From IMG/VR virus record IMGVR_UViG_3300037423_001636, positions 13,169 through 77,168 of that record: a DNA stretch of 64,000 bases. One strand, 5' to 3'. The position numbers and the translations under genes are program-made. Shown here one piece after another: positions 1,295-46,708 of the stretch. The notes beneath the pieces were generated by a model. It saw nothing but the letters and a program-made list of their open reading frames with translations, did not search any database and was not told the origin of the DNA. Origin of the DNA: a virus. Its lineage: Duplodnaviria > Heunggongvirae > Uroviricota > Caudoviricetes. Each line of letters starts with the position of its first letter. The stretch's first letter is position 1.

Positions 1295-1624
1295 ATGAGC
1301 ACACATATAACAGCCGGCGATAAGGTCTGTTGTATCGACGACGGCTGGAATCGCCAAGCCAACCCGTTGGTTCATATGCTCCTGCAATCTGTTCAGCCCG
1401 CGCCGCCGACGAAGGATCAGGTTTATTGCGTGCGAGAGGTCTACACCAATCACGTCGGCACTCCATCTCTGCGACTGGTCGGCATCATATCTCCATCGGT
1501 GCCGGTTTTTGGAGAACTTGGCTGGCGCGCAGACAATTTTCGGCGAATTTGGACGAATGATGCGGAGATTCGTGCTACCGTCGTAAAGTCTGTCCCGCAG
1601 ACGATGGATCTGAAGGACGAATGA
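1295..1624 (+). CDS. hypothetical protein
   Basis: Abutting ORF, GDKVCCIDD. Confidence 0.7.
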   Translation: MSTHITAGDKVCCIDDGWNRQANPLVHMLLQSVQPAPPTKDQVYCVREVYTNHVGTPSLRLVGIISPSVPVFGELGWRADNFRRIWTNDAEIRATVVKSVPQTMDLKDE

Positions 1625-1851
1625 CGAAAACCGACCAGTTCGTTCGTACTCTACTGCTCAATGGGTTCCGTCCATATCGGCAAGGTAGAAAACGCGCGTT
1701 CGAGAAAAATGGGGACCGTATTCATACTAGCTTCACACTCCTCGGGGCTGGGTGGGTGCACGTCTACCAGCGGGAATATCCGTGTTCGGAAGGCTGGTCC
1801 ATCTACAACTGCCGCGTTAGCAAAGCGCAAGAGCTGATTAGGTGGTGCTGA
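1621..1851 (+). CDS. hypothetical protein
   Basis: ATGA-coupled ORF. Confidence 0.6.
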   Translation: MTKTDQFVRTLLLNGFRPYRQGRKRAFEKNGDRIHTSFTLLGAGWVHVYQREYPCSEGWSIYNCRVSKAQELIRWC

Positions 1852-2237
1852 TGCTTATGGACACTCCTCCAGACTGGGCTTATCGTGCCGCAGAAGAGAT
1901 TGTCTTCACCGGCACAGCAGACGATGACTATGCCGCTTCGATCATCGCTAGAGAGTGGCAGAAAGACACCCAAACAATCCGATGTGTTTTCTGCGGCATG
2001 GCATATCCACCCGGCACACCCGCTAGCCAACACGAATCCCTCAATGCTCACATTCGCATCTGCGAAAAACATCCTTTGAGAGCGGCCGAAGCTCGAATCA
2101 CGGCGCTGGAGAAAACGCTCAAGACTCTGCGCGACAACCCGTCTATGTGGAAGCGTGGCGGCGCTGGCGGCCAAGATCAGTATGCGGGCATGCCGCCGGG
2201 AATGCGGCTGATAGATGAGACTTTGAGGTCAAGCTAA
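1851..2237 (+). CDS. hypothetical zinc-finger-like protein
   Basis: CVFCG...HIRICEKHP motif. Confidence 0.65.
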   Translation: MLMDTPPDWAYRAAEEIVFTGTADDDYAASIIAREWQKDTQTIRCVFCGMAYPPGTPASQHESLNAHIRICEKHPLRAAEARITALEKTLKTLRDNPSMWKRGGAGGQDQYAGMPPGMRLIDETLRSS

Positions 2238-13231: not shown

Positions 13232-13276
13232 TAGGGCGAAGTCCCTATTGCGCCGAAAGCGCGAATCTGCTATATT
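13232..13276 (+). promoter_or_regulatory. palindrome + promoter element 6
   Basis: TAGGG-N6-CCCTA TTGCGC N17 TATATT. Confidence 0.8.
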
Positions 13277-13285
13277 CTGCTCACG

Positions 13286-13507
13286 ATGAATCCCAAAAAC
13301 ACCATTCGAGTCACTCTCGCCTACAATCCAAATGCCGGCGCTCTTGGGCGGTCTGAAAAGACACCTTATCAAATCACCAAGATTGTTGGTGCAGTCCGAA
13401 CGAGCGCCAAAAACTCTCACGTGGGCGACTATCTCACGGAGAATGAGGCTGTCTACCTGTCTATGGCAGCGGACACTGAGGTCACAGTTGTGCCGGCGAA
13501 AGGCTGA
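13286..13507 (+). CDS. hypothetical protein
   Basis: Near-leaderless ORF. Confidence 0.65.
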   Translation: MNPKNTIRVTLAYNPNAGALGRSEKTPYQITKIVGAVRTSAKNSHVGDYLTENEAVYLSMAADTEVTVVPAKG

Positions 13508-13532
13508 CGGCCAATTCACATCCCCTCTTCAC

Positions 13533-14003
13533 ATGAAACAATCTAAAAAATCCTCAATCAGCGCGGTAGTACTCGGCGCTGGCGTGTTGAACTGGCCTCG
13601 CGAAGAGCGAGTGGGAGACAGATATGGCATCGTCTTCCTCGGCCCCTCGTCCGGTGGCTATGCAATTCCAGACGGGACGCCTGTGGAATCCGCCAAGACT
13701 TATCGGCCAGTCAAGAAGCTGTGCGAAGGTCAAAGGGGCCGGCTGGTTGCGACAGTCCTTGAGACTCGGCGGTCGGGCCACATCGGAGACCTATTCCACG
13801 GCATTTCCCCGCGCACGCCGAAAGTGGGGCAAGAAATCGAGCTGGGCGAAGGCACGCTGTTTTTCGACACGCGCGAAGGAATGAGCGGATTTGGCGCTGG
13901 CCTGAAACCAGATGACGGCCGGGAAACCCTGTGGTTGAAGATCCGTTCGCTTTACGACTGCCACGATCAGACGGTGGAACTGAAATTCTATCCCGCGGAA
14001 TGA
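13533..14003 (+). CDS. hypothetical protein
   Basis: ETR.S.HIGDLFHG motif. Confidence 0.7.
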   Translation: MKQSKKSSISAVVLGAGVLNWPREERVGDRYGIVFLGPSSGGYAIPDGTPVESAKTYRPVKKLCEGQRGRLVATVLETRRSGHIGDLFHGISPRTPKVGQEIELGEGTLFFDTREGMSGFGAGLKPDDGRETLWLKIRSLYDCHDQTVELKFYPAE

Positions 14004-14019
14004 CGAGCCGAAACCAAGC

Positions 14020-14214
14020 ATGAAAATTTACTACGCGGAGACCGATCGCGGATGTGCCTTGCGCACGGCCGAAACGCTCGATAAAGCACGCGCCCAATTC
14101 AAGCGCGAGGTCGGTGAGGACAACGTACGTACTGTTCGCGAAGCAACCGAGAAAGACATTGATTGGGTGCGCGGGATGGGTGGCTACGTGCCGCCCTTTG
14201 TGAAGCTGGAGTGA
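14020..14214 (+). CDS. hypothetical protein
   Basis: REAT..DI.WVRGMGG.VP. Confidence 0.65.
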   Translation: MKIYYAETDRGCALRTAETLDKARAQFKREVGEDNVRTVREATEKDIDWVRGMGGYVPPFVKLE

Positions 14215-14237
14215 ATAAGGTTCAGGCTTTGAAAACC

Positions 14238-14594
14238 ATGAAAAAGACGACCAAGAAAAAACGCACTACGAAGACCAAGACGTTCCGGGTCTGGCGTCCT
14301 GCCTATCGTCCGTTCATCCACGGCGGCAACGTCAATGCTCCGATCTGCATTGAAACGCCCGCCGATGAAATCCACACTGCAAAGGGATTCTCTGTCGGAT
14401 TGATTCGCCATAAGGCCAAGACCCTCGTATTCTGCGCTGCAAGCGGTGGCGTCGTCGGTGACGATATCATGCAAGTGATGGACGATATCAAAACGGGCAA
14501 ACCATCAGTGATTCGGAAACAGATTGCGCAGGCGAAGCGCGAAGGGGCCGACGCAATAGCGGTCACTCCTGACGAATTTTTCGGAGTGAAATAA
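14238..14594 (+). CDS. hypothetical protein
   Basis: ORF with basic N-terminus. Confidence 0.6.
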   Translation: MKKTTKKKRTTKTKTFRVWRPAYRPFIHGGNVNAPICIETPADEIHTAKGFSVGLIRHKAKTLVFCAASGGVVGDDIMQVMDDIKTGKPSVIRKQIAQAKREGADAIAVTPDEFFGVK

Positions 14595-14636
14595 ATCCTT
14601 TCGTTAGTCCCTCAAATCCCCTTACAACTTTCCTTT

Positions 14637-15026
14637 ATGAAGACCCTCGAACAGATCAAGGCATACCCCGGCGGGGAGAACTGCAATCTCATCGACAGTC
14701 GAGATAAGAAACGCCTTCTGCAATTCCTGCCGGTCGAAAACTGGAAGGCACTCGGCTTTTCGCTGAAGGATGGCGCTGAAGTCCCGACCCCGACCCCGCT
14801 CACACGCGAAACCGTTCTTGAAAATCTCGCAAACGACTTGGAGTTTGCATTCGAGAAGGCTCACAACAAGCGCGGCATCTCGGCGTCGCTCATGGGCGAC
14901 GTTATCAAAATGTGGATGTGGATTCTCGACGACGAGGAGTTGATGAGGCCGCCTGAGTGGAGCGACTATGGCATAGCCTACTTGGAACGCGTCGCGAAGA
15001 AATATAGCCTCCCTGTCCCGGCCTGA
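14637..15026 (+). CDS. conserved phage hypothetical protein
   Basis: FAFEKA..KRGISASLM motif. Confidence 0.7.
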   Translation: MKTLEQIKAYPGGENCNLIDSRDKKRLLQFLPVENWKALGFSLKDGAEVPTPTPLTRETVLENLANDLEFAFEKAHNKRGISASLMGDVIKMWMWILDDEELMRPPEWSDYGIAYLERVAKKYSLPVPA

Positions 15027-15040
15027 CCGGAACGAAAATC

Positions 15041-15271
15041 ATGGACACTGCAACACTTCGACCCTCCGCAGTTGCGGCATTTAACGCCTTCGCTGAGGCA
15101 CTGTCAGGCGAGCCCGAGATTAAGCGGCTGACCGGCATTATTGACCGGCACGCCCAAATCGCAGCCGAAGCTCGCGTGCTCATTCACAACGGCGGCGCTG
15201 GCCCGAACAATGCCCAACTGCGGCGCGTGGATTACATCCTCAGAGAAATCGCCGGTCTACCGCGCGAGTAA
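15041..15271 (+). CDS. hypothetical protein (linker array)
   Basis: Bounded by GAACGAAA linkers. Confidence 0.6.
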   Translation: MDTATLRPSAVAAFNAFAEALSGEPEIKRLTGIIDRHAQIAAEARVLIHNGGAGPNNAQLRRVDYILREIAGLPRE

Positions 15272-15282
15272 CATCGAACGAA

Positions 15283-15444
15283 ATGGACCCGTTTAAGCCT
15301 ACTCTCCCAAAGATTCGCTGCCGATTTTGCAAAAGACTCGTCGGCGTATTTATCCCGGCCGGCGGCGATGGTTCCGCGTGGCTGTTTCGCAAACACAATA
15401 TCAACCGGGGCGTCGTCTGCAAAGGCACACGGCGCGAAGCTTGA
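15283..15444 (+). CDS. small Cys-containing protein (linker array)
   Basis: 53-aa MDPFKPTLPKIRCRFCKR.. between linkers; absent from ORF track. Confidence 0.55.
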   Translation: MDPFKPTLPKIRCRFCKRLVGVFIPAGGDGSAWLFRKHNINRGVVCKGTRREA

Positions 15445-15454
15445 GAACGAAACC

Positions 15455-15622
15455 ATGCCTACCGACACTGAAATACTGAACTGGCTCGCGCTCCGACTTG
15501 AGAAAGTTGGCTGGACCGAGCTGGAGCTAGACATCGAAGCGGAGCGCGACGACTGCTCCGACAACTTCGGCGATGATTTTCGCCGTGCCGTCGCAAACGC
15601 GATGAAGGTCAACCCCAACTGA
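15455..15622 (+). CDS. hypothetical protein (linker array)
   Basis: MPTDTEILNWL.. Confidence 0.6.
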   Translation: MPTDTEILNWLALRLEKVGWTELELDIEAERDDCSDNFGDDFRRAVANAMKVNPN

Positions 15623-15638
15623 CGGAACGAAACCACCC

Positions 15639-15881
15639 ATGCCTAACGACATTCCTTTAGTTCGACTTAGCCGCGACTACACGCAATGCGGCCTTTCGGC
15701 AAAGGCCCGAAACAATGCCGTGCGTGATGCCCACTGGGTCACAGCCTCTCCGCATGAGTGGGTTTGGACGCCGGAGCAGCAAGCCAACATGGCGCGCTAC
15801 GTTCTATGGGCATCGCAACGACTCGAAGCCATCCGGCAACTTGCGGCGGCCACGCCGCTGCTCCACGAGCCGAAAACCTGA
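15639..15881 (+). CDS. hypothetical protein (linker array)
   Basis: Bounded by linkers. Confidence 0.6.
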   Translation: MPNDIPLVRLSRDYTQCGLSAKARNNAVRDAHWVTASPHEWVWTPEQQANMARYVLWASQRLEAIRQLAAATPLLHEPKT

Positions 15882-15901
15882 ACGAAACTTAAAGGCAGCC
15901 G

Positions 15902-16336
15902 ATGAATCCAACGCGACTAGGCATTAATAAATGCGGAACCGGCCTCTGGGCATCTGAGCCAGTTCGCCGTCAGACATACGCCGAAGTTGAGTGGGTGACT
16001 TGGGACAAGGCGAAACCGTTCACAAGTAAGCTCTCTGCCGAGGATGTAATCCGAGGTTGCAATTTGCAGGACTGTGAAGTTTTACCGCTCGCAGACCCGA
16101 ATCCCCGACCGCGCCTGAGCGAAACGACTATGGACAACGATACAGCCAAGGAAGCCGACCGCCGACTTTTGCGCATGAAGGCGCTTTACCATACTTGCAT
16201 GTCGCAGGCGTGCTTTCGGCGCGAAGAAGCGGCGAAGGAAACCGAGGTTGACGAAGCGACCGCACTGCGGCGCGAGGCAACCGTGTTCGAGGAGTGTGCG
16301 GGCTGGCTCAAGGCCGCAACCGACGACTGCCGCTAA
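15902..16336 (+). CDS. hypothetical protein, probable fusion of two array units
   Basis: Internal linker variant and ATG at 16117-16132. Confidence 0.55.
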   Translation: MNPTRLGINKCGTGLWASEPVRRQTYAEVEWVTWDKAKPFTSKLSAEDVIRGCNLQDCEVLPLADPNPRPRLSETTMDNDTAKEADRRLLRMKALYHTCMSQACFRREEAAKETEVDEATALRREATVFEECAGWLKAATDDCR

Positions 16337-16347
16337 ACGGAAAATCT

Positions 16348-16539
16348 ATGCTCAACCCAACTGCCACTCCCGAGCCTTCCGCGACTGTGCATCGCGTTCA
16401 TTTCGTCATTCCCGACGCCACAGACGATCCTGAATTGGAGACGCTTTCTGTGATGATGCAGGCACTGAACTGGAAGCTTAAGGGCGACCTGCCCGCGAAG
16501 CGCCGTATCGTAGATTACCTGCGCAGCCGTCTGGAGTGA
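16348..16539 (+). CDS. hypothetical protein (linker array)
   Basis: Bounded by linker variants. Confidence 0.55.
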   Translation: MLNPTATPEPSATVHRVHFVIPDATDDPELETLSVMMQALNWKLKGDLPAKRRIVDYLRSRLE

Positions 16540-16559
16540 GAACAAAGAAGCGTTTTGTG

Positions 16560-16913
16560 ATGAAGACGAATCTCATTATGTCTGCGAAATCGGCGGCGGC
16601 GTTGATCGATGAGCTAATAATCGCCGCTCCGGAAATTCGTGGGGCGGGTATCTGCCGCAAGCTGCTCGCGCGCTTGGATAGATTTGACGACCGCAAGCTG
16701 AAGGCAGCTATTGCCACTACAAGCCGATTAGAACGAAGCTCTCGGCAGAAAAGAAACGTGATGCACTACACGACACCAACCACAGACGACAACATAGACC
16801 AGCGGGTGGAAGAGTGGCACGCGATCATCCCGAGCACCGTGCCGCTCCACGAGTGGCTAGGACTGACATGGGAACAATACGCCCGCTGGGGCGAGACGAA
16901 CAAGCTGGGTTGA
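16560..16913 (+). CDS. hypothetical protein, probable fusion; C-terminal WH..LHEWLGLTWEQY..W unit
   Basis: Internal linker at 16731, second ATG at 16761. Confidence 0.55.
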   Translation: MKTNLIMSAKSAAALIDELIIAAPEIRGAGICRKLLARLDRFDDRKLKAAIATTSRLERSSRQKRNVMHYTTPTTDDNIDQRVEEWHAIIPSTVPLHEWLGLTWEQYARWGETNKLG

Positions 16914-16922
16914 ACGAAAACG

Positions 16923-17327
16923 ATGAGCGACCACAACGAGCGCGCCTGCACCTACTGCGGAAGTTTCCTGCACCATGAATCTGCGTGCCCACAGCGCGAA
17001 AAATCTATGAGCAACACACCCCGCACTGATGCAGTTTACGCGAAGGTTCTCGAATCAAACGAGGGCCACGCTGACGACCTAATTACTCTGGTTAACTTCA
17101 CTCGCGGCCTTGAGCGCGAGCTGACGGCGCAAATCGAAGGGCACAAGCTGACGGCAAAAGAGGCGTCGGAAGCCGCCGTGCTGCGCGCCGCTGATCGCAA
17201 ACTACGCGCCGCCTTGGAGGACGCGGCAAAGAGCTGGGAAAAGGAAGCCGCCGACACCAACTGGAACGGCCACATCCGCTCCACCTACGACTCGTGCGCG
17301 AAAGACCTTCGCGAATTGCTACGCTGA
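16923..17327 (+). CDS. hypothetical protein (MSNTPRTDA-type)
   Basis: Internal second start at 17007. Confidence 0.6.
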   Translation: MSDHNERACTYCGSFLHHESACPQREKSMSNTPRTDAVYAKVLESNEGHADDLITLVNFTRGLERELTAQIEGHKLTAKEASEAAVLRAADRKLRAALEDAAKSWEKEAADTNWNGHIRSTYDSCAKDLRELLR

Positions 17328-17336
17328 GAACGAACC

Positions 17337-17663
17337 ATGCCTACCACGAAAAAGCGGAAGCCGATTTCAAACCGGGAGCTGAACGGGCTCATGCACGACG
17401 CGATGCTGCACCAACTCCTCGACCAGCTTGGAGCGCCGAAAGAACAGAGCGGCGGCGTGCTATCGCCATTTGGCCGGCTGCGGCGAATCGCGCCGGCACT
17501 TCTCGCGGACAAGGCGCGCATGGACTGGCTCTGCAAATTCACCGAGTTCCGGTTCCGCGTCTATGACTCGAAGGAGCGGAAATTCCTCACGGAGAACTTG
17601 GCGCAGGGCGTCGTCATCCGCCCCGTCGTTGATGCCGCGATGGCGAAGTATCCCAACCCCTGA
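17337..17663 (+). CDS. hypothetical protein (linker array)
   Basis: DKARMDWL motif; bounded by linkers. Confidence 0.6.
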   Translation: MPTTKKRKPISNRELNGLMHDAMLHQLLDQLGAPKEQSGGVLSPFGRLRRIAPALLADKARMDWLCKFTEFRFRVYDSKERKFLTENLAQGVVIRPVVDAAMAKYPNP

Positions 17664-17671
17664 GAACGAAA

Positions 17672-17827
17672 ATGCTCTGGAAATTCATCCATAATCGCTG
17701 CTGGTTCGGATTCTGGTGGGCGTCGATTTGCTCAGCTCACTACCACAACGATTCGAAGTGCTCGCGTTGTCGGTCTGGTTATTGGACACGCACCAATTCA
17801 CCGCGCCTTTTTGGGCGCAAAAGATAG
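17672..17827 (+). CDS. small Cys/His-rich protein (linker array)
   Basis: 51-aa ..SICSAH....CSRCRSG.W; absent from ORF track. Confidence 0.55.
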   Translation: MLWKFIHNRCWFGFWWASICSAHYHNDSKCSRCRSGYWTRTNSPRLFGRKR

Positions 17828-17841
17828 CGAACGAGTCTCCC

Positions 17842-18042
17842 ATGAAAATCGACCTACTGCCGTTCACCATCCCCAACTTTGTGCGTATGGCATCGAAGCC
17901 GGGTCTGCGCCAAGAGGGATTTAAGGAATCGCCAGCGTTTCCGTTGGCTGACGTTCCAGCGGAAGACCTCGCCGCGCTCTGCGACCAATTCCGCGCCGAC
18001 GTGTTTGCGAAGGCAGGCAAGCCGGACCCCGCGAAGAAATAG
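17842..18042 (+). CDS. hypothetical protein (linker array)
   Basis: PF..PNFV..LCDQFRADVF.KAGK.DP. Confidence 0.65.
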   Translation: MKIDLLPFTIPNFVRMASKPGLRQEGFKESPAFPLADVPAEDLAALCDQFRADVFAKAGKPDPAKK

Positions 18043-18050
18043 GCGAACGA

Positions 18051-18266
18051 ATGCACGACGCCGAACAGTTCACCTCCGCCGCGTGGCAATCACTCAAGCA
18101 GCAATGCTGCGTGAATCCAGAGACCGCCGTGCGCTGCGTCATGGTTTCCGAAGAAGCCTTTCGCGCAGCTATGGAAAAGGTTCTCCGCGAACGCGCGGAC
18201 TCTAATGAGGAAGAGTGCGGAGGTAGAAGGCCGCCTGCCAAAGGAAACGAAGGACAGGTGGATTGA
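18051..18266 (+). CDS. hypothetical protein
   Basis: Last unit after linker. Confidence 0.5.
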   Translation: MHDAEQFTSAAWQSLKQQCCVNPETAVRCVMVSEEAFRAAMEKVLRERADSNEEECGGRRPPAKGNEGQVD

Positions 18267-18322: not shown

Positions 18323-18368
18323 TAGGGACAACTCCCTATAGCATTCTAACGCAACATTCTGATAGACT
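18323..18368 (+). promoter_or_regulatory. palindrome + promoter element 7
   Basis: TAGGG-N6-CCCTA ... TGA TAGACT. Confidence 0.8.
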
Positions 18369-46149: not shown

Positions 46150-46708
46150 ATTCGTAGGCTTCCCACAGCCGTCGAACGTCTCGGTGGAACCTCAGATGAG
46201 CCCGCTGATATGTGGACCCAAGTCTCGCCGCGATCTGGTAGAAGCTCATGCCATCTCGCACGCGCCAGTCGAAAACCCGCCGGTCAGCTCGGTTGAGCGT
46301 GTTTCTAAAGTCTTCTATATCAGAAGGTGGCCAAGATTGGTCGTCCACAATATCTGGCTCCACTACCGTAATCTCCTCACCCCAACGGCTAGTCTGCACG
46401 ACCTTCGTCCTTATCGGTCGCGCTAGCAACAGATTGGTGCGCCAGCGGTGGCTCTTGACCCCGCGGGCCGGAAGACTACGACGCAGCGAGTTGAAGACGG
46501 AGTTGCGGACTATTGTAAATACCCAACTAAACAGCTTGCCGCGATCTTTATCGAACTGGCCGCGCTTCTCAAACACGCGAATAATGGCTTCAGAGCGGAT
46601 ATCTTCCCATTCTTGGGACGGCAGTTTTACATCGAGTAGCCGGCGTTGCATGGCACCGAAACAACGGGCAGCCATGGAAAACAGCTCTTGATCGTTTGTG
46701 CTGCTCAT
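46142..46708 (-). CDS. sigma70/ECF-like RNA polymerase sigma factor
   Basis: Region 2 EDI.SEA.IRV....QFD..RG.L.SW.FTI.RN; region 4 LN..DR.VF....GMS..QIA.RLG. Confidence 0.8.
   Translation of the reverse strand: MSSTNDQELFSMAARCFGAMQRRLLDVKLPSQEWEDIRSEAIIRVFEKRGQFDKDRGKLFSWVFTIVRNSVFNSLRRSLPARGVKSHRWRTNLLLARPIRTKVVQTSRWGEEITVVEPDIVDDQSWPPSDIEDFRNTLNRADRRVFDWRVRDGMSFYQIAARLGSTYQRAHLRFHRDVRRLWEAYESK

Follow-up and report, generated by a model that had tools for sequence, protein, structure and literature searches.

The termination-reinitiation elements (TURBS) of caliciviruses lie upstream of the stop codon, span ~40-90 nt and pair with 18S rRNA. In phage T4, the endoribonuclease RegB targets GGAG in the initiation regions of early genes, and T4 also has RegA operators. 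Adjacent cistrons can further be served by Shine-Dalgarno (SD) or termination-reinitiation coupling (Huber et al. 2019, PMC6728339; 2023, PMC10666635), the plain form of which reportedly fades by a spacer of ~20 nt (PMC10666635). Some Verrucomicrobia are counted among 'SD-scarce' organisms (PMC10783764). For Bacteroidota and some Verrucomicrobiota, which make hardly any use of SD sites, the question arises of how internal cistrons come to be translated. PeSL (promoter-early stem-loop) cassettes, finally, are known from the hyperplastic regions of T4-type phages (Arbiol et al. 2010, PMC2839356; Comeau et al. 2014, PMC4122927).

We analyzed a block of tiny genes within a 64-kb stretch (the window) of a 205-kb soil phage genome (G000). 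These genes are joined by the heptamer GAACGAA, most likely a novel type of signal that serves the serial expression of promoter-less genes.

Results

The array in the window (array 1, Table 1) comprises 12 ORFs, fewer than the about 14 tiny genes of the first-pass annotation, yet three of them contain in-frame vestigial junctions (16117, 16731, 16997), which brings the array to about 15 cassette units. The nine exact linkers and three variant linkers which that annotation had listed are all present. It had also described the block as devoid of palindrome-promoter modules and of ATGA overlaps; indeed, no module lies between 13232 and 18323, and no ATGA overlap occurs in array 1, though such overlaps are common elsewhere in the genome. 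The claimed GC richness holds as well, since the value of 0.577 is the highest among all 3.24-kb stretches of the genome (mean 0.525, sd 0.021).

Table 1. Features of array 1 and its surroundings, in positions of the window.
Feature	Position	Strand	Evidence or remark
Palindrome + sigma70-like promoter module	13232..13277	+	Regex match TAGGGCGAAGTCCCTA...TCTGCTATATT; opens array-containing transcription unit
Five promoter-proximal genes of the array's transcription unit	13286..15026	+	Ordinary motif-less junctions; ORF calls, upstream contexts
GAACGAA linker 1	15030..15036	+	TGA-ccg-GAACGAA-aatc-ATG
Cassette ORF, 76 aa	15041..15271	+	Homologs 61-85% identity; paralogue in array 2
GAACGAA linker 2	15276..15282	+	TAA-catc-GAACGAA-ATG
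Cassette ORF, 53 aa, Cys-rich	15283..15444	+	
GAACGAA linker 3	15445..15451	+	TGA-GAACGAA-acc-ATG
Cassette ORF, 55 aa	15455..15622	+	
GAACGAA linker 4	15625..15631	+	
Cassette ORF, 80 aa	15639..15881	+	TGA stop overlaps linker 5
GAACGAA linker 5	15880..15886	+	T-GAACGAA, ATG 15 nt on
ORF, 144 aa, probably two fused cassettes	15902..16336	+	
Vestigial junction within 144-aa ORF	16116-16132	+	TGA-GCGAAACGACT-ATG, ATG in frame
Degenerate linker, two mismatches	16337..16347	+	TAA-ACGGAAAATCT-ATG; TAAACGGAAAA at 16335
Cassette ORF, 63 aa	16348..16539	+	
Variant linker GAACAAA	16540..16546	+	
ORF, 117 aa, probably fusion	16560..16913	+	PHROG family matches in C-terminal half only
Exact motif inside 117-aa ORF	16731-16737	+	In-frame ATG at 16761
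GAACGAA linker	16912..16918	+	T-GAACGAA-aacg-ATG
ORF, 134 aa	16923..17327	+	Zinc-knuckle N-terminus + second unit past vestigial junction
Vestigial junction within 134-aa ORF	16997-17009	+	CGAAAAATCT-ATG
GAACGAA linker	17328..17334	+	
Mosaic cassette ORF, 108 aa	17337..17663	+	N-terminal half 86% identical to L016 gene, C-terminal half 73% to L015 gene
GAACGAA linker	17664..17670	+	
Cassette ORF, 51 aa, Trp/Cys-rich	17672..17827	+	
Variant linker GAACGAG	17829..17835	+	
Cassette ORF, 66 aa	17842..18042	+	
GAACGAA linker	18045..18051	+	Final A = A of ATG
Last cassette ORF, 71 aa	18051..18266	+	No motif 3' of it
Next palindrome (hairpin) + promoter module	18323..18368	+	Closes array unit, opens next one

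On the plus strand of the window GAACGAA occurs 11 times, with 10 copies within 15030-18051, nine of which follow a stop codon and precede the adjoining ATG; both strands together hold 21 copies, compared with 11.2 ± 3.0 in shuffled sequence. Genome-wide, 10 of the 32 plus-strand copies are packed into 3.0 kb (Poisson p ~1e-10). When stop-to-ATG junctions were defined mechanically, the exact motif was found at 12/23 in arrays versus 2/514 elsewhere in the genome (Fisher p ~1e-16). The junction motif is hence real and hugely enriched, far above chance. In sense coding sequence outside the arrays, 15 copies were observed against 14.7 expected, and this lack of avoidance fits a signal that is active only beside a stop codon and an AUG. 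The motif is confined to the arrays, a restriction seen in two near-complete genomes: the other junctions of each genome lack it, and so does 776 kb of related phage DNA.

The statement of the first-pass annotation that the motif is unseen at junctions outside the block did not survive, since the same genome carries a second array spanning the assembly ends (genome positions 204587-205041 and 1-1690). At least two distant relatives use the punctuation as well; it was found in a phage of 219 kb whose TerL is 35% identical and on a pair of short metagenome contigs. Our junction set comprises 46 two-sided junctions from five arrays (G000 twice, G012/L257, L015 and L016). The motif is exact in 33 of these and carries one mismatch in 13, always on the coding strand. 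It starts -2 to +8 nt relative to the end of the stop codon, often as TGAACGAA, and lies -1 to +20 nt (median 4) from the start codon, in stop-to-ATG spacers of 5-30 nt; its tie to the stop codon is at least as tight as that to the start codon, the AUG spacing being loose. Two arrays hold N+1 copies per N genes, with copies at both array ends, and for a terminal copy in two arrays the next 70-100 nt are free of AUG. In three cassettes the common junction is longer and reaches into the first codons, GAACGAA(A)CC-ATG-CCT-AMC. Across the junctions we found no flanking conservation, no second conserved element at any spacing up to +34 and no local inverted repeat or attC-like hairpin, and an Rfam search gave no match. 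The motif and the following 25 nt have a predicted unpaired fraction of 0.57-0.64, versus 0.43 for flanking coding sequence. Upstream of every array lies a sigma70-like promoter whose first gene is near-leaderless, and neither stop/start overlaps nor internal palindrome-promoter modules were found in the arrays.

Cassette content is hypervariable among relatives rather than invariant: gene content differs almost wholly between the phages bearing arrays while the punctuation is unchanged. In three or four phages the motif is conserved among cassettes that are otherwise unrelated, in arrays lacking internal promoters or an SD site. Only single cassettes are held in common, and DNA homology begins and stops at the motif. 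In the cassette shared by G000 and G012 (ORF ~70% identical), homology runs from GAACGAAAAT-ATG (10/10 before the ATG) through the stop plus GAAC(G/A)AA (3' linker 6/7), and the neighboring genes are unrelated. In L015 and L016, ends of homologous cassettes are without the motif (TAGCTAACGTCC, and an ATGA overlap). In another phage, one cassette (85% aa, 77% nt identity) lies between two hairpins and is equipped with an A/C-rich leader and a separate -10-like element, GGTAACT, which indicates that the linker stands in for an expression module. Array 2 has a GC content of 0.561 against 0.525 for the genome, hence both G000 arrays are GC-rich islands; their similarity to the contigs bearing other arrays (58-61% GC) suggests import.

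Shared genes and sequence style, on which the host assignment rests, point to Verrucomicrobiota/Opitutaceae-like bacteria as likely hosts. In a candidate host genome (Nibricoccus MAG, Opitutaceae) ~12% of starts are SD-like, and the phage genes are likewise SD-poor. The 3' end of its 16S rRNA is canonical, CCUCCUUUCU (GAUCACCUCCUUUCU), and no complement of GAACGAA was found there or elsewhere in this rRNA. None of the 90 GAACGAA copies in 400 kb of this genome lies at a real gene junction, hence the motif is not a general host signal. As the first-pass annotation had stated, GAACGAA is not an ordinary SD site: it has no anti-SD (CCUCC) complementarity, and its AUG spacing of -1 to +20 nt is not the usual ~5-9 nt. 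Coupling by overlap (ATGA/TGATG) was rejected too, array 1 having no overlaps and spacers of 5-30 nt.

The 100%-complete 205-kb record gave no match to the tyrosine recombinase profile PF00589, whose control was positive in 14/14 genomes, nor to the serine recombinase profile PF00239. The RegB profile PF10715 had no match in the phage, and the control for that family also matched nothing. The complement TTCGTTC occurs in no credible non-coding RNA, nor in the window's three structured RNAs.

Discussion

We propose, with a probability of roughly 0.4, that GAACGAA is an RNA-level, SD-independent linker that lets ribosomes restart on promoter-less cistrons. It would be a portable intercistronic element with which a small clade of ~200-kb soil phages lines up tiny promoter-less genes, their functions unknown, in the distal portion of long early operons. 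In the transcript, this heptamer, A-rich and largely unpaired, immediately follows each stop codon; there it would retain or reload the ribosome that has just terminated, or load a fresh one without an SD site, and translation would resume 0-20 nt further on, at the following AUG. Its reader may be a phage protein or, on the host side, the ribosome or S1. For internal cistrons, the linker would thereby take the role that hairpin, promoter and leaderless start have for stand-alone genes of the same genome. Since plain reinitiation reportedly fades by ~20 nt and array spacers measure 5-30 nt, restart would need help. An RNA signal for re-initiation or processing, one of the two origins offered by the first-pass annotation, is the best fit to the junction anatomy, though not proven. 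Against restart count the other internal cistrons of these phages, which work without GAACGAA, the missing complement in the candidate host's 16S rRNA, the absence of the motif from that host's gene junctions, the loose AUG spacing, the terminal copies with no AUG nearby and a tie to the stop codon at least as tight as that to the start codon. A more specific version, in which a dedicated, sequence-specific, SD-free termination-reinitiation (ribosome-retention) element is read by a ribosomal component or phage factor in SD-poor bacteria and the same heptamer serves as the crossover point of cassettes, strikes us as rather unlikely.

Possible, if rather doubtful, is that the heptamer is a DNA microhomology where promoter-less cassettes swap, insert and delete between co-infecting phages, a minimal version of the T4-type PeSL cassettes whose place at junctions is a by-product of array building. 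Such exchange would agree with the turnover of array content under the same punctuation, with shared homology that begins and ends at the motif, and with the suggested import of both GC-rich arrays, yet homologous exchange would have very little to work with in 7 bp, the genome yielded neither a tyrosine nor a serine recombinase, and any mosaic that breaks at gene boundaries would seem to break at the motif when spacers measure 5-30 nt. While the N+1 copies for N genes in two arrays, the extended junction of three cassettes, the absence from arrays of the ATGA overlaps common elsewhere and a genome full of PeSL-like palindrome-promoter modules (about 18-30; PMC2839356) point in its direction, the motif-less ends of homologous cassettes in L015 and L016 do not, and the strict link to coding strand and stop codon is not required of a recombination site. 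Recombination and RNA roles of the heptamer can coexist.

An RNA target of a sequence-specific trans-acting factor is an unlikely alternative to the restart linker. The factor could be an endoribonuclease that processes the long early transcript to monocistronic mRNAs with short leaders, or a RegB/RegA-like nuclease or repressor that switches all array genes off, or on, together. Because the motif lies just 3' of the stop, a cut there would spare the upstream ORF, and leaderless or short-leader starts are favored by the host style; however, a context-free nuclease is improbable since sense coding sequence outside the arrays shows no avoidance of the motif. The regulon-like restriction to arrays in two near-complete genomes, the sequence-specific motif without flanking conservation, the copies flanking both ends of two arrays and the predicted single-strandedness all suit a factor, of which neither a candidate nor a complementary small RNA was found.

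A promoter element, for example a -10-like box for a phage sigma factor yielding one transcript per tiny gene, is very improbable. The phage does encode a sigma70-family protein and has other short motifs, e.g. GTGTAAA, 12-20 nt upstream of late genes, and GAAC is similar to ECF -35 boxes; nonetheless, about half of the start codons lie only -1 to +4 nt from the motif, which would put them upstream of the transcription start (6-7 nt past a -10 box, ~35 nt past a -35 box), and a second conserved element is missing up to +34. The other origin offered by the first-pass annotation, a scar of integron-like site-specific capture by a dedicated recombinase, is largely refuted and hardly tenable: the interchangeable, promoter-less cassettes of one orientation and variable content, bounded by a motif attached to the ORF 3' end as attC is, do stand, but the genome has no integrase of either class, the junctions have no attC-like imperfect palindrome or Rfam match, and the spacers are shorter than any attC.

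A conserved 7-nt junction at ~46 unrelated gene boundaries is a concrete, testable cis-element. It may give large phages a second, ultra-compact way to keep hypervariable early-gene arrays expressed, beside hairpin and promoter modules. If GAACGAA is a portable restart signal, it could prove useful for building synthetic operons in SD-poor hosts; if it instead links cassettes for recombination, it would extend to a minimal form the PeSL concept, in which modules are shuffled by way of regulatory sequences; and if the retention element is true, a 7-nt plug-and-play linker would make any captured ORF translatable within an operon.

Compared with known systems, GAACGAA resembles TURBS as a cis RNA element through which a ribosome that terminates would resume on the following ORF, but it is located downstream of the stop, measures 7 nt and lacks a complement in the candidate host's rRNA. 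With RegB/RegA it has in common a specific short motif in intercistronic initiation regions of early phage genes and, potentially, joint post-transcriptional control; the RegB target is itself a Shine-Dalgarno sequence, whereas GAACGAA is unrelated to it, and no RegB/RegA homolog was found (the RegB-family control being uninformative). Like SD and coupling signals, it is a short sense-strand sequence between the stop and start of adjacent cistrons, needed for internal ones, yet it lacks anti-SD complementarity, has an AUG spacing of -1 to 20 nt, joins non-overlapping genes across spacers in a range where plain reinitiation reportedly fails, and is used in special arrays rather than genome-wide. 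Integrons similarly hold one-orientation promoter-less cassettes of hypervariable content, read from an upstream promoter with a repeat after each stop, but here IntI, attI and the 57-141-bp attC with paired R/L boxes are absent, the motif being 7 nt and predicted single-stranded. PeSLs, in turn, measure ~50-60 bp and provide promoter, terminator hairpin and an own transcript for each gene, whereas the 7-nt GAACGAA unit has no promoter or hairpin and lies inside one polycistronic unit with modules only at 13232 and 18323. In both, ORFans that are small, non-essential and highly variable adjoin a short, conserved sequence with a regulatory role, the boundaries of exchanged modules fall at the repeated element, as in the G000/G012 cassette, and this element would double as an expression signal.

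Results

Clustering of GAACGAA in the phage genome (G000, the whole viral record) exceeds chance. The window contains 21 copies, against 11.2 ± 3.0 in shuffles; 10 of the genome's 32 plus-strand copies lie within 3.0 kb in array 1 (p about 1e-10), and arrays 1 and 2 together hold 17 of the 32 in about 5.2 kb (p about 3e-17). The enrichment at junctions, which the first-pass annotation had put forward for testing, is far above chance as well, with the exact motif at 12/23 mechanically defined junctions in the arrays versus 2/514 elsewhere (Fisher p about 1e-16). Array 1 is indeed an array of tiny genes, with twelve plus-strand ORFs of 51-144 aa rather than about 14 genes, gene calls at this size being partly heuristic. 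The exact and variant motif copies described earlier are present, the block has neither a palindrome-promoter nor ATGA overlaps, and its GC content, 0.577, is the highest of all 3.24-kb windows. By contrast, the remark that the motif had not been seen at junctions outside the block is corrected by array 2, which spans the assembly ends and carries the same linker. ORFs with internal motif copies look like fused cassettes; the one with the exact internal copy has PHROG family matches in its C-terminal part only. Otherwise Pfam and PHROGs searches of array and flanking proteins were essentially empty, and database relatives exist for two cassette families and for parts of two other ORFs. An origin by tandem duplication was rejected, as all-against-all blastp gave one paralogue pair only, between the two arrays.

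Coordinates of the arrays, motif copies and other features discussed
Feature	Reference	Position	Remark
Array 1	window	15026-18266	
Exact GAACGAA between stop and next ATG	window	15030, 15276, 15445, 15625, 15880, 16912, 17328, 17664, 18045	
One-mismatch variants	window	16540, 17829	
Degenerate form	window	16337	
Copies or vestiges inside ORFs	window	16117, 16731, 16997	GAGCGAA, exact, CGAAAAATCT; each then in-frame ATG
Palindrome-promoter modules	window	13232, 18323	none between
76-aa cassette	window	15041-15271	
108-aa cassette	window	17337-17663	
77-codon ORF	window	1621-1853	
Sigma70_r2 match	window	46478-46618 (-)	genome 59646-59786
(c)GTGTAAA(t) examples	window	upstream of 48370, 49198	
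(c)GTGTAAA(t) examples	genome	79437, 81462, 85638	
Array 2	genome	204587-205041, 1-1690	10 such junctions, with GAATGAA and GAACAAA variants among them
Terminal direct repeat	genome	1-127, 205042-205168	
360-aa protein	genome	1757-2839	L004:1757-2839
Linker pair around mini-ORF	L015	3342-3378	
TnpB/Cas12f-like protein and bL12 homolog	L257 (G012)	1-367, 16069-16560	

Across 46 two-sided junctions the conserved core is GAACGAA, and the flanks show no conservation. The motif starts -2 to +8 nt after the stop codon, most often at -2, giving TGAACGAA (14/46), with TAGAACGAA and TGAGAACGAA as other common arrangements, and the distance from motif to start codon is -1 to +20 nt (median 4). Where this spacer is longer, it carries a C-rich leader resembling those of non-array genes, and the start context, with C at -1 and -2 and A at +4, does not differ between the two gene classes. 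Structure prediction leaves the motif and the 25 nt behind it less paired than the flanking coding sequence. In the short metagenome contig L015, two linkers 30 nt apart surround a three-codon mini-ORF (ATG GGC GGA TAA), which may be a relay ORF or the remnant of a deleted cassette. A 77-codon ORF of the window, overlooked by the gene caller, is preceded by TGA-AGGACGA-ATG, in which AGGACGA closely resembles the linker, here at a site outside the arrays. Of the four intergenic sites of the reverse complement TTCGTTC that a search for antisense RNA turned up, one belongs to a missed ORF, one to a late-promoter region and one to the tail of a terminator, and the fourth is unexplained; the three structured RNAs contain no such site. 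In G000 sense coding sequence outside the arrays, TTCGTTC is somewhat commoner than codon shuffles predict (17 copies versus 9.3 expected; uncorrected p about 0.013). A literature search with the raw motif retrieved primer sequences only.

The IMG/VR record of G000 is a complete virus of 205,168 bp. Its terminal direct repeat of exactly 127 bp, inside array 2, is probably not a physical end but the overlap left by a k=127 assembler when the genome is circular or permuted. The phage looks like a siphovirus, since it encodes a T4-type TerL, a 1,944-aa tape measure protein, a gpJ-like tip protein and a DnaE-type polymerase. Among deposited phages no close relative was found (TerL tblastn, at most 27% identity over 60% of the protein), and blastn of the array block gave no match. 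Searches of G000 for the bS21, bL12 and T7-like RNAP families were negative, as was that for RegB, a family whose control was also without match. A sigma70-family protein is present (Sigma70_r2, E 3.6e-9, in a 211-aa open frame). A third start-proximal motif, (c)GTGTAAA(t), stands ahead of many late or structural genes genome-wide, 12-20 nt upstream of structural-gene ATGs; it points to late promoters that form a class with very short leaders, and the sigma70-family protein may read these boxes. The 360-aa protein encoded directly after array 2 has a signal-peptide-like N-terminus, and neither it nor its homologs have Pfam domains on record. Its homologs number more than 130, with identities as low as 46%, and come from Opitutaceae chromosomes and from phage contigs of soil and freshwater; the protein serves well as a marker of this phage group.

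Arrays occur in at least three or four independent phages among the matches listed. Two short Logan contigs were reached via homologs of the 108-aa cassette: L015 (4.4 kb, GC 58%), with 11 sense-strand copies at nearly every junction, and L016 (1.5 kb), with four. The 76-aa cassette led, through its homologs, to G012 (IMGVR_UViG_3300045051_000720), a relative of 219 kb (96% complete, GC 61%) whose TerL is 35% identical to that of G000 over its full length. There, a single array of 3.7 kb holds 11 of the 17 forward copies (p about 2e-14). About 0.8 kb upstream of it stands a TTGACG-N17-TACCTT promoter, whose first gene is near-leaderless. A TnpB/Cas12f-like protein and a homolog of ribosomal protein bL12 are encoded within 5 to 8 kb of this array.

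The first-pass annotation had weighed an invariant gene order among relatives against its proposal; instead, gene content differs almost entirely from array to array. L015 and L016 each have half of one gene in common with G000 and nothing more, which makes the 108-aa protein a mosaic: the L016 gene matches its N-terminal half at 86% identity and the L015 gene its C-terminal half at 73%. Across this family, several different C-termini follow one conserved N-domain (LGAPKEQSGGKLSPFGRLRRI). The single cassette common to G012 and G000, of the 76-aa family, shows DNA similarity from exactly GAACGAAAAT-ATG to the stop codon plus GAAC(G/A)AA, between unrelated neighbours.

The closest homolog of the 76-aa protein (L258; 85% amino-acid versus 77% nucleotide identity) is encoded without the linker, between two copies of the hairpin GTGAGCGTTGCTCAC; an A/C-rich leader and, ahead of that, a -10-like box (GGTAACT) precede it. 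The motif is likewise missing from more distant homologs (L012-L014, L137-L139, L261), and no GAACGAA clusters occur in the 10 IMG/VR records and 80 metagenome loci (776 kb) that the 360-aa gene retrieved; what looked like a cluster in G011 consisted of coding sequence and ATGA overlaps. Judged from these comparisons, the punctuation is thus conserved, yet limited among the matches listed to a narrow set of phages and to discrete arrays therein.

Other searches added no arrays. In IMG/VR, neither the 255-aa neighbour nor TerL nor the alignment of the 108-aa family picked up anything useful, and a metagenome scan with this alignment gave no confirmed match. The matches listed for a triple-motif DNA pattern scan of IMG/VR included no arrays, being tandem repeats, collagen-like repeats and paralogous N-termini (MNERI...). 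Three unrelated phages, reached through the Zn-knuckle N-terminus of the 134-aa ORF, have Shine-Dalgarno sites or overlaps and no copy of the motif, and a lone 19-aa match to a Christensenellaceae MAG, in a scan of genome contigs, was dismissed. Three IMG/VR loci (L095, L124, L079; about 59-62% GC), picked up solely via their GAACGAA content, hold long tandem arrays of 38-nt period, whose unit of constant GAGCGAGCCA, 8 variable nt and GAACGAATGACA has a spacer-like look. In a related phage (L142; NCBI GCA_040960095.1, 176-kb contig), a G-GTAACTT -10-like box precedes many ATGs by 5-20 nt, which is another near-leaderless promoter style among these phages with few Shine-Dalgarno sites.

Shine-Dalgarno sites are almost never found at genes of the phage, and in many genes the ATG follows an extended -10 box by 5-12 nt, implying near-leaderless mRNAs. 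The 360-aa family also occurs in the Opitutaceae genomes Nibricoccus and Lacunisphaera, and we infer an Opitutaceae-type host. In a 400-kb Nibricoccus sample (GC 57%), only about 12% of roughly called starts are Shine-Dalgarno-like and leaders are C/A-rich, as in the phage; some Verrucomicrobia are reported to be 'SD-scarce with conserved CCUCC' (PMC10783764). The Nibricoccus 16S rRNA has a canonical 3' end and no complement of GAACGAA, and 0 of 90 GAACGAA copies in the sample lie at true gene junctions.

Discussion

Three mutually compatible readings of the motif remain. We tentatively favour, at a probability of about 0.4, an RNA-level expression linker, which would fill the place held by hairpin, promoter and leader for the same gene elsewhere. 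This reading is favoured because, in these Shine-Dalgarno-poor genomes, no long stretches other than the arrays lack both promoters and gene overlaps, and because the motif is sense-specific and predicted to be accessible.

Alternatively, the motif may be recombination microhomology in the spirit of the PeSLs, the promoter-early stem-loop cassettes of T4-type phages (PMC2839356). Mosaicism at the level of single cassettes, a high GC content that makes the arrays look 'imported', the N+1 motif copies in two arrays and the extended shared junction including the first codons all point this way; we regard this reading as rather improbable. A target of a specific nuclease or repressor, which would explain the regulon-like restriction to arrays, seems less probable again: searches for such a factor found none, and a context-free nuclease is at odds with the lack of avoidance of GAACGAA in sense coding sequence elsewhere (15 observed versus 14.7 expected from codon shuffles). 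Although the phage does encode a sigma factor, a promoter element is unlikely, because half of the ATGs lie at most 4 nt from the motif and a partner element is absent. Integron-type cassette capture, one of the two readings offered by the first-pass annotation, fails, because G000 yielded neither a tyrosine nor a serine recombinase and the junctions no attC-like structure.

With spacers of this length, ordinary reinitiation reportedly no longer works (PMC10666635), which further favours the RNA-level expression linker.
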